Shown here in pieces: positions 5,735 to 35,574 of a stretch of 39,924 nt of DNA. The DNA comes from a virus (Duplodnaviria > Heunggongvirae > Uroviricota > Caudoviricetes), in IMG/VR virus record IMGVR_UViG_2778261064_000020, positions 1 through 39,924 of that record; one strand, written 5' to 3'. The translations under genes and the position numbers were made by a program. The number at the start of each line of letters is the position of its first letter. Positions within the stretch are counted from its first letter, which is position 1. The notes under the pieces are model-generated. The model was not told the origin of the DNA, did no database searches, and worked only from the letters and a program-made list of their open reading frames with translations.

Positions 5735-6623
5735 CCTCCAGTTTCGCTTTGCATTCTATGTAAATGGCTTGTACGTTCTGCTGCAATTTCATTCCAGATG
5801 TCAGGCGATATGCTTCTGCAAAATATCGCTTCAAATCATCCATGTTTTCTGCCTGAGCCATTTCATCGCAAAGAAGTTGTGCTTTATCCATTATTTCCTG
5901 CTGGCGTTTCCGTTCATCTTCGCGGATATCTTCCTCTGATTTGTGCGGCATAACTGGTTCGGTCCACACGCCTTCTTCTTCGTTTAGTACGTGAATAGCA
6001 CTATCAAGGCGTGATGCCTTAGGCCAATACTTGCTTGCACGCTTTACGACCGTCTTTCGCGCCATCTCATTCCAGTGATTTACCCATGGTCCTTTATCGC
6101 TGAATGCTGCCTTGCTTGTTTTCCTTACAGCCTCAATTTCAGCCAGACTCATCTCTTCCGTTAGATAATCACCTGCTGGCGTCTTAACTGTGCAGTAAAC
6201 GCCAACGATATCACCACGGTCACCGAAGGCGTTGTATTTATGGGTTGGTGCTTTATCAAGCCCGTTTGACTCATAGGTATCGTTAGCATGAACAAGTTTT
6301 GCCTGACCCCATGAGATAACACCAGACTCCATTGCAATATGGAGCAATCCCATATAGCTGATATCAAGGCACACCATGCCGTCGCGAGGAACCAGATAAG
6401 CCAGTTTGCTGGCCGGGTTTAAGGTGATGCCGATCGCCGCAACATTGATGATGGCGTTCTGTGCGCTGGTTGGATTTGCCAGTGCTGTTTTAGCCAGGTA
6501 ATCGTTTTTCTGGAAATACTGAATTGCAAACTGGCTTTCCTTAGCCCATGTCACCGTCTGTTCAGTCAATGCTCCGCAGAATAACTGCTCCTGCTGTTTA
6601 ACGAATTCAACGATATTGCTCAT
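5712..6623 (-). CDS. recT: RecT-family single-strand annealing recombinase
   Basis: 303 aa; motif GPWVNHWNEMARKTVVKRASKYWP closely parallels Rac RecT GPWVTHWEEMAKKTAIRRLFKYLP. Confidence 0.8.
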   Translation of the reverse strand: MSNIVEFVKQQEQLFCGALTEQTVTWAKESQFAIQYFQKNDYLAKTALANPTSAQNAIINVAAIGITLNPASKLAYLVPRDGMVCLDISYMGLLHIAMESGVISWGQAKLVHANDTYESNGLDKAPTHKYNAFGDRGDIVGVYCTVKTPAGDYLTEEMSLAEIEAVRKTSKAAFSDKGPWVNHWNEMARKTVVKRASKYWPKASRLDSAIHVLNEEEGVWTEPVMPHKSEEDIREDERKRQQEIMDKAQLLCDEMAQAENMDDLKRYFAEAYRLTSGMKLQQNVQAIYIECKAKLEVASEQTV

Positions 6624-6931
6624 GCAGCTTCTCCAAAAATGTGTCTGCGTTTGAATATTGCGAAGGCATATTCAGCCTTAACTCTTTCGGTTATTGCATC
6701 CCAGAACCATTCAGCGGCTTTTTTCTGATAGTTACAGTCATCATCTTCCAGCCAGTCGATAGCGTCCTTAGTGTGTTCATCTGGTTTATATGAGCGAAGC
6801 ATTTCGCTTATTGGGTCGCAACGTTTGCAGAGGCGATCAACTTCACTGTTGATTCGTTCGTAATCTTCATCAGTAAAACTTGCGATTATTTGCGATATTT
6901 CACGCTTATCATTCAGAGTCAGAATCATCAT
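6620..6931 (-). CDS. Hypothetical phage early protein
   Basis: 103-aa ORF with overlapping stop/start junctions to its neighbours. Confidence 0.5.
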   Translation of the reverse strand: MMILTLNDKREISQIIASFTDEDYERINSEVDRLCKRCDPISEMLRSYKPDEHTKDAIDWLEDDDCNYQKKAAEWFWDAITERVKAEYAFAIFKRRHIFGEAA

Positions 6932-7016
6932 CTTTCTCCTGTTCTTTGTGCTGATTGAGCATTTCTTTCATCTGACGAATGAATTCTTCGTCTGACCAGT
7001 TATCTGTAAAACTCAT
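6909..7016 (-). CDS. Small hypothetical protein (35 aa), translationally coupled
   Basis: Manual translation MSFTDNWSDEEFIRQMKEMLNQHKEQEKDDDSDSE; ATGA overlap with the kil-like ORF. Confidence 0.25.
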   Translation of the reverse strand: MSFTDNWSDEEFIRQMKEMLNQHKEQEKDDDSDSE

Positions 7017-7165
7017 TTCCTGCGATACCACGGAAGGTTGATAGCTGATTTCATCGCTTTATTTGCTTCAAGCCACATTTTTGAATCACCAATAAACCTG
7101 GCTATTACTGCTTTGTTTTGTGCTGCACGAAGCATCTGGTGATTGATGGCTATTTCATTGCGCAT
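7013..7165 (-). CDS. kil: Kil-like small protein (host cell-division inhibitor family)
   Basis: 50-aa ORF; ARFIGDSKMWLEA resembles lambda Kil ATFIGDEKMFREA as I recall it; located next to a cIII-like ORF as in lambda. Confidence 0.45.
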   Translation of the reverse strand: MRNEIAINHQMLRAAQNKAVIARFIGDSKMWLEANKAMKSAINLPWYRRK

Positions 7166-7284
7166 AACGCCTCCAGTTGTTTCTTTGCTGCTCTGATTAA
7201 TTGTTTAACTCGGCGTGATAATTCAGATTCGTGCGGGTAGAAAGCGGACATGACGCCGCTACCCGCGAGCTGAAAGTGCATCAT
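7150..7284 (-). CDS. cIII: CIII-like protein (FtsH/HflB inhibitor family)
   Basis: MMHFQLAGSGVMSAFYPHESELSRRVKQL resembles lambda CIII (MQYAIAGWPVAGCPSESLLERITRKL); AAGGAG ribosome-binding site 6-9 nt upstream; the longer ORF in the track (to 7389) is probably not used. Confidence 0.55.
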   Translation of the reverse strand: MMHFQLAGSGVMSAFYPHESELSRRVKQLIRAAKKQLEALCAMK

Positions 7285-7508
7285 GGGTAACTCCTTATAT
7301 TTGATTGCATAACGAAAACGCCTCGAATGAAGCGTTATTGGTATGCATATAAAAAGGCCCTCACACTGGAGGGCAAAGAAGATTTCCAATAATCAGAACA
7401 AGTCGGCTCCTGTTTGGTTACGAGCGACATTGCTCCGTGTATTCACTCGTTGGAATGAATACACAGTGCAGTGTTTATTCTGTTGTTTATGTCAAAAATA
7501 AAGGCCGA

Positions 7509-8132
7509 CTATGCGGCCTCGGAAGGAAGTCCAATCATCTTATTCAAATCTTCTACCCGTAAAGCAGGAAGTGCTGTACTTGCTTTATCTGCTTCTTTTG
7601 GTAGCAATTCTTTGCTTTCAGGCCAAACCTCAATAAGTCGCTTAACTGTTGTGACTGAGTTCAAAGCAGCCCATACATTTGATTCGATATCCTTTTTCTT
7701 GGCTTCAAGTTTTTGTTGCAATGCGCAGATTTCATCAAACCTTTTTGTTATTTCGTGTTCTGCGCTAAACATGCATTTATCTTTGTTCGGAGTAGGGAGC
7801 AATATATCTTCGCCGTTGCCGTCTTTCCCATATGAAAGCCATCCAACCCTTCTGCCAGATACAGTCAGATAAATTGAAGTAGAACGAACATCGTATGAGT
7901 AAAATGAACATCCAATCTTTCCAAGTTCTTCACTTATAGCTACCAACTTGGATGATAACTGATTCACTTCCTCAGTTTTCTTTTTACCGCCAAACGCAAT
8001 AACTCTGGCGTCAAGTGCAAGCTGGTTCTTTAACTTTGTTACTTCTTCAAGTTCAGTGAAAACCCCAGACTTAATTAAAGCGTTACGAGCGATTTCCTCT
8101 TTCATTCTCGTAGTTAAGCGGATTGATGACAT
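7509..8132 (-). CDS. Hypothetical protein in the N-cIII intergenic slot (lambda ral/sieB/ea10 position)
   Basis: 207 aa starting MSSIRLTTRMKEE with a GAGG ribosome-binding site; soluble, no recognisable motif. Confidence 0.55.
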   Translation of the reverse strand: MSSIRLTTRMKEEIARNALIKSGVFTELEEVTKLKNQLALDARVIAFGGKKKTEEVNQLSSKLVAISEELGKIGCSFYSYDVRSTSIYLTVSGRRVGWLSYGKDGNGEDILLPTPNKDKCMFSAEHEITKRFDEICALQQKLEAKKKDIESNVWAALNSVTTVKRLIEVWPESKELLPKEADKASTALPALRVEDLNKMIGLPSEAA

Positions 8133-32888: not shown

Positions 32889-33374
32889 CTACCTGATATT
32901 ACTGCTACTGTTGCATGTTACCGTGTTTCCAAATCCTGAATTGCAGTTTGTATATGTGTCAACGCGTGTTGGGTAAGGTTGAGTTATAACAGGCTGGCGC
33001 GCTTTTTGCTCGATCGCTTGCATTGTGTTTACAGCCTGATAATTCAATAAAGCCTGCTGGAATGCTTGGCTTTGTGCTATTTGTTGTGCTTGTTCTTGGC
33101 TTTGTAATTGAACATAAAGATTCTGAAGTTCAAGTCTTGCCTGTGTGTCACTTATCTTGCCTTCATCGACACCTTGCCCGAGCATCTTCGCAGCAAGGAC
33201 ATACAGCTTAGGTGTTGGTGCTGATGCCATGCGAGAGTCGTTCTTCAAGCTGGCATCAAGGCAATTAGCCATATCGCTAAGCTTTGGATAGCGTTGCTCG
33301 CAACTTGCCTGATAGTCGCTTACTTTTGCGCACCCAGCCAGCAGAAGCGGGATAATTAACAGTGATTTTTTCAT
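32889..33374 (-). CDS. Lipoprotein of unknown function (moron in the sieA slot)
   Basis: Start at MKKSLLIIPLLLAGC with AAGGAGAG ribosome-binding site; signal peptide plus lipobox LLAGC; Gln-rich helical middle; Cys-containing C-terminus. Confidence 0.6.
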   Translation of the reverse strand: MKKSLLIIPLLLAGCAKVSDYQASCEQRYPKLSDMANCLDASLKNDSRMASAPTPKLYVLAAKMLGQGVDEGKISDTQARLELQNLYVQLQSQEQAQQIAQSQAFQQALLNYQAVNTMQAIEQKARQPVITQPYPTRVDTYTNCNSGFGNTVTCNSSSNIR

Positions 33375-33408
33375 ATAATTAACTCTCCTTAGTTTTGCGC
33401 AGGATACC

Positions 33409-33774
33409 ATGAAAAAAGTTAACATTGGAAACGTACCAAAGATGCTCGTACCGCTCTTTGAGAGCGGTACAATTGTGTTTTGTAGAGACTTTCCAGAATG
33501 GCAACGCCTGCATCAAAAACTTGGCGTTGACGTGCATGACTCGGACGCCAACGGAGCGTCTCATACAATGAGTAGCGAGAATGGTGTTTTGCATGTGATA
33601 GGCGTGTTCAATGGCAAACTATCTACTATTGCCCATGAGTGCGCTCACATGGCATTCGATATCTGCTCAAGGGTAGGTGTTGATGTTGAACCAGGAAGAG
33701 CCAACGAGACTTACTGCTACTTAATGAGCAGGCTTGTTGAGTTCTGCGAGCGACATATCAAAAAGCCGGAGTGA
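33409..33774 (+). CDS. Small HExxH-motif protein, putative Zn-metallopeptidase-like
   Basis: 121 aa; IAHECAHMAFD contains HExxH with a Glu 19 residues downstream (gluzincin-like spacing); AGGA ribosome-binding site; divergent from the lipoprotein gene with only 34 nt between start codons. Confidence 0.5.
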   Translation: MKKVNIGNVPKMLVPLFESGTIVFCRDFPEWQRLHQKLGVDVHDSDANGASHTMSSENGVLHVIGVFNGKLSTIAHECAHMAFDICSRVGVDVEPGRANETYCYLMSRLVEFCERHIKKPE

Positions 33775-33787
33775 CCCGGCTTGATTA

Positions 33788-33967
33788 TTACTTTTTGCTG
33801 TCTGGAGTTCGCTTATCCAATACCCAGCCATGACCTGGCTTTGTTGTTGGTGGAAGCCTTTCGTTGTCCTTGACGGTGGCAAAATTGTCTTTCTTACCGC
33901 CGCGTGGGCCAACTTCTTGGTATATTCCGCCGTTTTTCCCTGTGTTTTCACCTGGTTTTTTCGCCAT
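33788..33967 (-). CDS. Small hypothetical protein (59 aa), possibly YjzC-like
   Basis: MAKKPGENTGKNGGIYQEVGPRGGKKDNFATVKDNERLPPTTKPGHGW...; GAGGT ribosome-binding site; convergent with the HExxH gene. Family assignment is tentative. Confidence 0.45.
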   Translation of the reverse strand: MAKKPGENTGKNGGIYQEVGPRGGKKDNFATVKDNERLPPTTKPGHGWVLDKRTPDSKK

Positions 33968-34066
33968 GATATACCTCAACATACACCCGCTATTGGGCGA
34001 TTAAATATTGATCTCATTTTATAAGTAGTCAATATGGCCCAGGTAAATGCAAAAATTAACTCACCG

Positions 34067-34318
34067 TCAGGTGGTTTTTTTGTACAAATCCTTCAGCGTA
34101 TCAAACACCATCTTCTTAACAAGATCTGACTGCTCATCAGCGAGTCGTTCTGCATCGTCACGATATCCAGTCACAGGCGATGGTTTTGATAGAGCATCTT
34201 GGACGATTTGTAACAACTCGGAGTTCATTGATCTCCCATTCGCCTCCGCCCTGAATTTTAATTTCTCCCTTACTTCCATAGGCATACGGAAGTTAAAGTG
34301 CGGATCATCTCTAGCCAT
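34067..34318 (-). CDS. mnt: Mnt repressor (ribbon-helix-helix, immI)
   Basis: 83 aa MARDDPHFNFRMPMEVREKLKFRAEANGRSMNSELLQIVQDALSKPSPVTGYR..., P22 Mnt. Confidence 0.9.
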   Translation of the reverse strand: MARDDPHFNFRMPMEVREKLKFRAEANGRSMNSELLQIVQDALSKPSPVTGYRDDAERLADEQSDLVKKMVFDTLKDLYKKTT

Positions 34319-34570: not shown

Positions 34571-34638
34571 AGTTGAAGCCCCAACTGCTGGAACAGTCAG
34601 GGCTTCGGTTGTCAGTAAATCCGTGGAGAAAAACCAAC

Positions 34639-35574
34639 ATGAATAGTATAGCAATTTTAGAAGCAGTGAACACCTCTTACGTACCATTCAACGGTCAGCA
34701 AATTATCACCGCCATGGCTGCCGGAGTTGCATATGTTGCGATGAAGCCAATCGTTGAAAACCTTGGAATGAGCTGGTCAACGCAGCAAACAAAACTCATG
34801 AAGCAGATTAGCAAATTCAACTGTGTTCATATGAACATGGTTGCCGCTGATGGGAAGCTTCGTAAGCTACTCTGCCTTCCTTTGAAGAAGTTAAATGGAT
34901 GGCTGTTCAGCATCAACCCTGAGAAAGTTCGTGCTGACATCCGTGATAAACTGATTCAGTACCAGGAGGAATGCTTTAGCGTGCTGCATGACTACTGGAC
35001 TAAAGGCCATGTAGTTAACCCACGCAAAGCTAAAAAGGCGTTGCCGGGTAAAATCACCACTGAACAGCAGGAAGCCATTAAACAACTCGTCATGAGTCGC
35101 GGTCAGTCTCTGCCAAAAGAAAAACAGGCTAAGGCGATGATCACCATGTGGTCGTCACTGAAATCCCATTTTGGATGTTCGTACAAAGAAATCAGTGAGG
35201 AGCAGTTTACAGAAGCACTGTCACTTGCAGCTCGAGTTCCACTTGAAGGCGAGTTTATCGGCAAACAAGAGAAGAAAGCAAACGAGCTTTCTGCAAAAGA
35301 AGCAAACAGCCTTGTATGGTTATGGGATTATGCTAACCGTTCACAGGCATTATTCCGCGAACTGTATCCGGCGCTAAAACAAATTCAATCGAACTATTCC
35401 GGCAGATGCTACGACTACGGTCATGAATTCTCGTATGTTATCGGAATGGCGAGAGACGTTTTAATAAACCACACACGAGATATTGATATTAATGAGCCAG
35501 ACGGACCAACGAATCTTTCCGCATGGATGAGACTTAAGAATAAAGAATTACCTCCTTCAGTACATAACTACTGA
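34639..35574 (+). CDS. ant: Antirepressor Ant
   Basis: [53 protein letters not shown]... matches the P22 Ant N-terminus. Confidence 0.85.

Follow-up and report, generated by a model that had tools for sequence, protein, structure and literature searches.

A predicted minimal zincin encoded by hkcC, a conserved accessory gene in the immI region of P22-like prophages

The core of a minigluzincin comprises a small sheet, a backing helix, a helix bearing the HExxH motif and a following helix that supplies a glutamate ligand. The minigluzincins are proabylysin, projannalysin and selecase (Lopez-Pelegrin et al. 2013, as cited in PMC4559962), and WLM, SprT and the minigluzincins have been described as having one common structural organisation. 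In phage P22, the ant moron, or immI region, consists of sieA, hkcC, orf59a, mnt, arc, sar and ant, and, of these, hkcC and 59a are the two to which a published comparison of P22-like phage genomes assigns no known function. The DNA analysed here (IMG/VR record IMGVR_UViG_2778261064_000020, positions 1 to 39,924; this whole stretch of 39,924 nucleotides is called the window) is a complete P22-like (Lederbergvirus-type) Escherichia coli prophage that carries the same module, with a lipoprotein gene in the slot held by sieA in P22. An initial annotation, made from the sequence alone, proposed that its hkcC gene encodes a metallopeptidase of the ImmA/IrrE or SprT-like kind, possibly acting as a switch on the repressors Mnt and Arc, with an anti-defence protease as the alternative. 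Our combined findings suggest that HkcC very probably does have a zincin fold with a competent active site, judging from residue conservation and a predicted structure. The fuller reading of hkcC as an accessory lytic-cycle gene for a zinc endopeptidase with a target outside immI has, in our estimate, about even chances.

The active-site motif described in the initial annotation, an HExxH followed by a glutamate 19 residues on in a protein of 121 aa, was confirmed as HECAH at residues 76-80 and E100, with exactly 19 residues between H80 and E100. The HExxH motif alone is weak evidence, as it occurs twice in the open reading frames of at least 100 aa in the window. Conservation was assessed mainly in an alignment of 116 homologues with 24-44% identity to the window HkcC. 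The invariant columns were H76, E77, H80 and E100 and no others, with G49 and Y104 conserved in at least 90% of the sequences. Among 19 close homologues (43-78% identity), all keep H76, E77, H80 and N99-E100-T101. At the nucleotide level, the 38 distinct variants of hkcC differ from the window by 187 synonymous and 25 non-synonymous codon changes which, together with the residue conservation, argues that hkcC is a real gene under purifying selection. By the alignments, this selection acts precisely on the zinc-hydrolase tetrad. There are 32 close cluster representatives, and an exhaustive profile search found 514 distant ones at E ≤ 0.001, 116 of which form the larger alignment. Four cysteines (C25, C78 inside HECAH, C86 and C103) are conserved in the hkcC clade and not across the wider family; they may form a second metal site or provide redox control of the cysteine-switch type described for Wss1.

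Structure prediction with AlphaFold2 from the 19-sequence alignment gave a confident model (predicted local distance difference test 89.3, predicted template modelling score 0.83). In order along the chain, it contains strands at residues 11-13 and 21-25, a helix at 28-37, a hairpin at 49-56/59-66 and helices at 71-88 and 100-116. The HExxH motif lies inside the helix 71-88, and E100 is the first residue of the helix 100-116. As modelled, this is the layout of a minimal zincin: sheet, backing helix, active-site helix and glutamate helix. The hallmarks of a zincin, namely HExxH on a helix, a glutamate ligand at least 18 residues further on, and a sheet with an edge strand and a backing helix, were all found in HkcC, the model being a prediction. 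The confident model and the invariant tetrad together uphold the minimal gluzincin architecture that had been proposed. No signal peptide is predicted, and the product appears to be a cytoplasmic, single-domain protein.

Searches of Pfam, NCBIfam and PADLOC with HkcC returned no family match. The protein does match PHROG 1365, a family labelled "unknown function", with an E value of 1.7e-39 across residues 1-121 (profile positions 3-120 of 127). Each of the aligned relatives, 116 in number, gives a match to this profile as well, and the family holds more than 500 clusters at 50% identity. A sequence profile search of the PDB with the 116 sequences gave marginal matches only, all of them zinc proteases, the same search with 19 sequences gave none, and no close solved homologue was found in PDB sequence searches. 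Matches in BFVD were phage proteins, a few of which are named SprT-like, metalloprotease or IrrE.

The specific families named in the initial annotation fared poorly, in that no member of the HkcC family reached the Pfam threshold for Peptidase_M78 or SprT-like. Peptidase_M78 (PF06114) matched neither the window HkcC nor any of the 116 relatives at E ≤ 0.01; when ten relatives were scanned separately, P0072 alone matched, at an E value of 0.099 and 12.9 bits (cut-off 22) over about 30 residues. For SprT-like (PF10263), no match was obtained with the window HkcC and no relative reached the Pfam threshold. Sub-threshold matches were found for 30 of the 116 relatives at E < 5 (best E 1e-4), a typical one scoring 15.7 bits against a cut-off of 25.6 and covering profile positions 63-96 only. 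The weak Pfam matches span just ~35-40 residues around the HExxH helix. In the alignment of 116 homologues no conserved histidine follows H80, E100 being the sole further invariant residue. No sequence or structural relationship to proabylysin, projannalysin or selecase was found. From its profile matches and model, HkcC is a putative zincin of phage family PHROG 1365, distinct from both ImmA/IrrE (M78) and SprT-like proteins. It has the size and architecture of a minigluzincin, yet is not demonstrably a member of the WLM, SprT or minigluzincin families. Some longer relatives (phage mEp044, locus L095 3501-4085; P0065, P0072, P0136 and P0156) carry an acidic coiled linker and a Lys/Arg-rich C-terminal tail, and in three of the longer relatives the last residues of the tail form a conserved peptide (VPRVMSFKRG, VPRIARYKRG or VPRVMSFKRW). 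These basic tails suggest tethering to DNA or to a partner.

The window gene is the one annotated hkcC in phage HK620 (AAK28904), and most P22 records leave this open reading frame unannotated. Over the segment from 33381 to 34066, identity to P22, HK620 and ~50 further phages is 97-98%, with the DNA of hkcC and orf59a ~98% identical to the P22 and HK620 copies. The segment is carried by 132 of 5,426 complete E. coli genomes (~2%), where RefSeq names the products of both genes hypothetical; hkcC is likewise hypothetical in PGAP and of unknown function in PHROGs. A second HkcC-family gene was sought in the window and none was found. All of mnt, arc, the sar antisense RNA and ant are present, and the immI region of the window prophage is thus complete, sar included. 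Features of the locus are collected in the table. Two leads from the literature were set aside: the P22 ORFan locus pid, which lies elsewhere in the late region between orf25 and orf80, is not hkcC, and the BTP1 transcript STnc6030, which is antisense to the adjacent injection-protein and tailspike genes, has no bearing on it.

Table. Features of the hkcC locus (positions in the window)
Feature	Position	Strand	Description
hkcC coding sequence	33409..33774	+	121 aa plus stop codon; 13.6 kDa, pI 6.4; PHROG 1365
HExxH codons H76-E77-C78-A79-H80	33634..33648	+	on predicted helix 71-88
Codons E100 to Y104	33706..33720	+	E100 codon 33706-33708; start of predicted helix 100-116; local motif A-N-E-T-Y-C-Y
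Hairpin common to convergent hkcC and orf59a	33763..33782	unstranded	loop holds the hkcC TGA stop (33772-33774)
orf59a	33788..33967	-	59 aa, pI 9.9, basic; likely a small beta protein of the YjzC family; same strand as mnt and downstream of it
Leftward control region, conserved	33375..33465	-	holds the ribosome-binding site for the cargo gene and, in the first ~31-55 nt of hkcC, the site corresponding to P22 PsieA
Divergent cargo gene, lipoprotein	32889..33374	-	161 aa; lipobox LLAGC; PHROG 6067; no Pfam match
mnt	34067..34318	-	Arc-like ribbon-helix-helix domain plus Repressor_Mnt domain
sar antisense RNA	34571..34638	-	Rfam RF00262, 92 bits
ant allele	34639..35574	+	311 aa

The 5' end of hkcC has a second role in the locus. 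In P22, the promoter PsieA is annotated within the first 31 nt of the hkcC open reading frame. Leavitt et al. (2024) reported full exclusion from sieA in single chromosomal copy with only 85 bp of upstream DNA, and 85 bp upstream of sieA reaches ~55 nt into hkcC. The counterpart of the window control region in P22 is at locus L002 2498-2583. The leftward ribosome-binding site (RBS; CTCCTT on the plus strand) is common to the window, P22 and HK620, whose sequences agree through this site and part ways precisely where the leftward gene begins, at its start codon. That slot is occupied by sieA in P22, hkcB in HK620 and the lipoprotein gene in the window. We surveyed 80 IMG/VR prophage loci with near-identical hkcC, and found sieA in 13, hkcB in 8, the window's lipoprotein gene in 17 and something else in 42. 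Together, these observations point to a fixed leftward promoter and RBS in and beside the 5' end of hkcC, serving a swappable cargo gene whose product is exported or membrane-bound.

The spacing of 34 nt between the starts of hkcC and the divergent lipoprotein gene, given in the initial annotation, holds with the ATG at 33374, a start that is backed by an AAGGAG Shine-Dalgarno sequence, by the lipobox LLAGC at residues 11-15 and by the start of a Morganella homologue. It had been argued from this spacing that each promoter must lie inside the other gene. One half of this proposal stood, as a leftward promoter in the 5' end of hkcC is supported, and the other half did not. The DNA shared with P22 and HK620 starts at 33381, no more than 28 nt ahead of the hkcC ATG, and the upstream gene differs between phages, so that a dedicated hkcC promoter inside that gene appears unlikely from these comparisons. 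By its position, the window lipoprotein is a candidate superinfection-exclusion lipoprotein; a homologue occupies the same slot in a Morganella P22-like prophage (L098 3662-4141). A perfect 10-bp inverted repeat (GTACCGCTCT ttg AGAGCGGTAC, 33448-33470, -17 kcal/mol) lies within hkcC codons 14-21, just upstream of the presumed leftward promoter. In P22 and HK620 it retains 9 of 10 pairs, but little of it survives in the copies from Morganella, Proteus and Xenorhabdus, where the encoded peptide is the same. Because only the E. coli and Salmonella copies have it in strong form, we dropped this palindrome as a conserved element of the mechanism; an operator, an attenuator and chance are all possible readings of it.

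The partner gene at the other end of hkcC is orf59a. The initial annotation placed hkcC about 300 bp from mnt, which agrees with the 292 nt between their stop codons (33774 and 34067), and omitted orf59a, which fills part of this gap. The hairpin at the junction is annotated as a bidirectional terminator in HK620 (tORF59A) and as t mnt in P22. In the near-identical loci, orf59a is intact in 68 of 80, leaving 12 with hkcC and no intact orf59a. It is also found convergent with hkcC, at a distance of 12-20 nt, in 14 of 15 diverged loci, in which hkcC identity falls to as little as 43%. The pairing recurs in podovirus ant morons, in siphovirus tail-gene morons and in a third context. It is one-sided, as orf59a homologues are frequent without an HkcC relative, for example in prophage accessory islands, environmental genomic islands and among the head genes of a Clostridium phage.

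Orf59a is likely a member of the YjzC family (PF14168), as judged by sequence: it scores 19.1 bits against the Pfam profile (cut-off 25) in a match of nearly full length, homologues at E values of 1e-6 to 5e-4 carry PF14168, and UniRef and RefSeq call close homologues "YjzC family protein". Its model is confident and has three strands, and no structural neighbours were found for it. A literature search on YjzC returned nothing useful. YjzC-family genes may be conversion or defence genes expressed by prophages. Several observations were made along the way. In Salmonella prophages (L107-L111), orf59a/YjzC homologues adjoin GmrSD-type, HEPN-type, toxin-antitoxin or HigB/helix-turn-helix (HTH) genes; in Clostridium phage phiCT9441A (L096 2986-3153), a YjzC homologue lies in opposite orientation inside the head-gene cluster; and at L121 6839-8428 the hkcC-orf59a cassette is followed by a gene for a 529-aa P-loop protein of Abi-like appearance. 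A 117-aa gene convergent with the orf59a homologue in environmental islands (L104) was considered as an HkcC analogue and rejected, as its product has no HExxH.

Orientation is the main guide to when hkcC is expressed. The gene is co-oriented with gene 16 (gp16) and the tailspike gene 9 (gp9) in all 80 IMG/VR loci, and transcription from PLate is known to pass from gene 16 through the ant moron into gene 9. Siphovirus prophages of Klebsiella, Rosenbergiella, Xenorhabdus and Proteus have homologues of ~60% identity among their tail genes, likewise pointing the same way as these. As there is also no conserved upstream DNA for a promoter of its own, hkcC is probably expressed by read-through of the late operon, a conclusion drawn from orientation only. 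Sf6 and other P22-like phages lack the ant moron altogether, and hkcC is thus dispensable for virion production.

The wider family is found in temperate and virulent phages. A paralogue of ~38% identity lies between the lysis and small terminase genes of ST64T (orf-129), epsilon34 (gene 70) and phage L (orf129), and more distant relatives in mEp044 and a metagenomic phage lie likewise between lysis and terminase genes. Many P22-like phages have this paralogue (L094 3501-3890 for ST64T; L126 5980-6366), and the genomes of Phi75, UAB_Phi20, SE1 and ST160 each have two places matching HkcC, presumably paralogue and hkcC. In a virulent N4-like phage, the relative is the first gene of a block divergent from the late genes, and two relatives in Autographiviridae (T7-like) phages are found at the right genome end after terminase and lysis genes, and between ligase and RNA polymerase genes. 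A scan of genome contigs gave only three loci, and a scan with P0022 found no locus. In a Proteus-type siphovirus prophage (L087/L120, ~6000-8000), a block resembling the ant moron lies among the tail genes, with hkcC, orf59a, a gene for a 149-aa Mnt-like ribbon-helix-helix (RHH) protein, a small plus-strand open reading frame and a gene for a 201-aa antirepressor-like protein. Its occurrence in a siphovirus indicates that the module moves between phage morphotypes.

How such a protein might act can be sketched from these features. The zinc ligands would be H76 and H80, both on the active-site helix, together with E100, which opens the following helix, and E77 would serve as the general base that activates a water molecule. 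Y104, which lies one turn of the helix beyond E100, would assist by stabilising the reaction intermediate, and the small beta sheet would take up the substrate at its edge as an additional strand. Transcribed as a passenger along with the late operon, hkcC would yield the protease in lytic growth and not in the lysogen. Two leftward units of prophage type would bracket and overlap hkcC: the promoter and RBS of the cargo gene at its 5' end, and the mnt-orf59a unit, which would end in the hairpin that holds the hkcC stop codon. The target would be a host protein, or at least a protein from outside immI, and its cleavage would serve host takeover or counter-defence. A host-directed target is suggested by the relatives in virulent phages, which have neither repressors nor orf59a, and by a family that predates the association with orf59a; we put it forward tentatively, as a possibility we would sooner doubt than rely on.

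Several points weigh against this account. The late timing is read from orientation only, and the hairpin at the end of hkcC could equally terminate a transcript from an unrecognised promoter of the gene's own. Genes resembling mnt adjoin orf59a in ~7 of the 15 diverged loci, and genes of antirepressor type (Ant, Rha, KilA-N, Bro-N) are met repeatedly within a few kb of hkcC-clade genes. We read these neighbours as accessory genes gathered in moron islands and, in Proteus, as a whole ant moron transplanted together, although they may also reflect a functional link to antirepressor modules. Finally, the tight pairing with orf59a in the diverged loci is left unexplained by a host-directed target.

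The proximity of hkcC to mnt, arc and ant, and the mnt-like genes next to orf59a in diverged loci, would fit the original proposal of an ImmA/IrrE-like switch in which HkcC cleaves Mnt or Arc, and so controls Ant expression and lysogeny. The distribution of the gene runs the other way. In HK620, hkcC and orf59a are intact and mnt and ant are mere remnants. Thirteen of the 80 near-identical loci lack mnt, arc and the window-type ant, with mnt present in 54 and arc in 57 overall; the window ant allele, present in only 18, belongs to the most often exchanged part of immI. In several siphovirus prophages hkcC lies away from any mnt, loci L005, L121, L122 and L089 likewise have it unbound to immI, Morganella prophages have mnt-orf59a-hkcC without arc or ant, and family members in virulent phages have no repressors and no orf59a. 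This persistence without mnt and arc argues that hkcC is not tied to Mnt and Arc. Furthermore, hkcC has no co-transcribed HTH repressor beside it: Mnt and Arc are RHH proteins encoded in other transcription units, and the constant neighbour of hkcC is orf59a, not mnt. Orientation implies expression late, after the lysis-lysogeny decision, and none of the 116 relatives matched Peptidase_M78 at the threshold used. We consider a repressor-cleaving switch extremely unlikely. An alternative role, clearing phage DNA of cross-linked or tightly bound proteins ahead of replication or packaging, as by SprT or Wss1, draws on SprT-like being the commonest weak Pfam match, on the many relatives that lie directly upstream of packaging genes or among DNA-metabolism genes, on the Lys/Arg-rich tails of the longer relatives and on the structural organisation ascribed jointly to WLM, SprT and minigluzincins. 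Those matches are below threshold and confined to the HExxH helix, HkcC itself has neither a basic tail nor a zinc ribbon and has a pI of 6.4, and the conserved third residue is a glutamate, with no conserved third histidine. This role is, in our estimate, distinctly improbable.

The pairing with orf59a can be accounted for by a dedicated pair, in which Orf59a, made in the lysogen along with Mnt, is cleaved by HkcC made only in lytic growth, shutting off a prophage function while the phage itself develops, or in which Orf59a is an antitoxin-like inhibitor of leaky HkcC. This is the only hypothesis that explains the cassette, and it draws on the closely convergent arrangement retained in most near-identical and diverged loci and in several contexts, on the one hairpin common to both genes and on the position of orf59a on the prophage-type leftward strand, downstream of mnt and followed by a terminator. 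Set against it are the many orf59a homologues without an HkcC relative, the ST64T-type paralogue and virulent-phage relatives without orf59a, and the near-identical loci in which orf59a is not intact; moreover, the linkage could reflect a common terminator and the shared descent of a small module. We regard a dedicated pair as rather unlikely. A fuller version, a mobile hkcC-orf59a switch whose YjzC-like prophage effector is removed by, or restrains, a late mini-protease, and whose convergent, terminator-sharing layout is kept while it jumps between podovirus and siphovirus late operons, we hold to be unlikely. Finally, the zincin fold could be used for metal-dependent binding or inhibition of a partner, or for hydrolysis of a non-peptide bond, given that HkcC is very small, has no C-terminal subdomain to shape a specificity pocket and had no close solved homologue in the PDB sequence searches. 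That the invariant residues are exactly the four expected for catalysis and metal binding, the general-base glutamate among them, is the signature of an active hydrolase, and a non-proteolytic use seems very unlikely.

The hkcC gene is known, and its zincin nature, the size of its family, the orf59a cassette and the promoter-plus-cargo design are undescribed in the literature and databases searched. Literature searches on phage SprT-like anti-defence proteins and on HExxH anti-defence proteases gave nothing useful. The gene lies amid the textbook immI region of a paradigm phage, P22, and yet has no assigned function in the databases searched. Its reading as a catalytically intact minimal zinc protease would make its activity testable through four residues, and at 121 residues HkcC would rank among the smallest zincins. 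Sequences of the family fall into at least 514 clusters and come from temperate as well as virulent phages, and hkcC itself occurs in ~2% of complete E. coli genomes. Should the target prove to be a host defence protein or a prophage effector, phage-host conflict would gain a proteolytic mechanism, and if the hkcC-orf59a switch is true, it would provide the first function for the YjzC family and for a minimal phage zincin family of more than 500 clusters. There is as yet no evidence for an unusual mechanism in HkcC, and the tempting idea of an ImmA-like protease for Mnt and Arc has been removed as unsupported.

Among known proteases, the ImmA/IrrE proteins, including CapP of CBASS and PprI, are unlike HkcC, which has no match to their Pfam family. 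These M78 proteins are about twice the size of HkcC, and their substrate is typically an adjacent, co-transcribed HTH repressor, which hkcC lacks. The SprT-like/WLM/Spartan proteins provide the commonest weak Pfam match of the HkcC family and have a small, minigluzincin-like zincin core. In SprT, Spartan and Wss1 the third zinc ligand is a histidine shortly after the HExxH motif, whereas the conserved third residue of HkcC is a glutamate, and HkcC has no DNA-binding module. An HExxH-x19-E arrangement with an Asn-Glu pair is the spacing and local motif of thermolysin-type gluzincins, with the pair in NExxSD in thermolysin and NEGFA in M1 enzymes. HkcC shares with these M4 and M1 enzymes both the spacing and the Asn-Glu pair at the third ligand. 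They are three to ten times larger and have a full C-terminal subdomain, and no homology to them beyond the motif was detectable in Pfam and PDB profile searches. The minigluzincins, like HkcC, are soluble, single-domain proteins of roughly 100-120 residues that consist of the bare zincin core.

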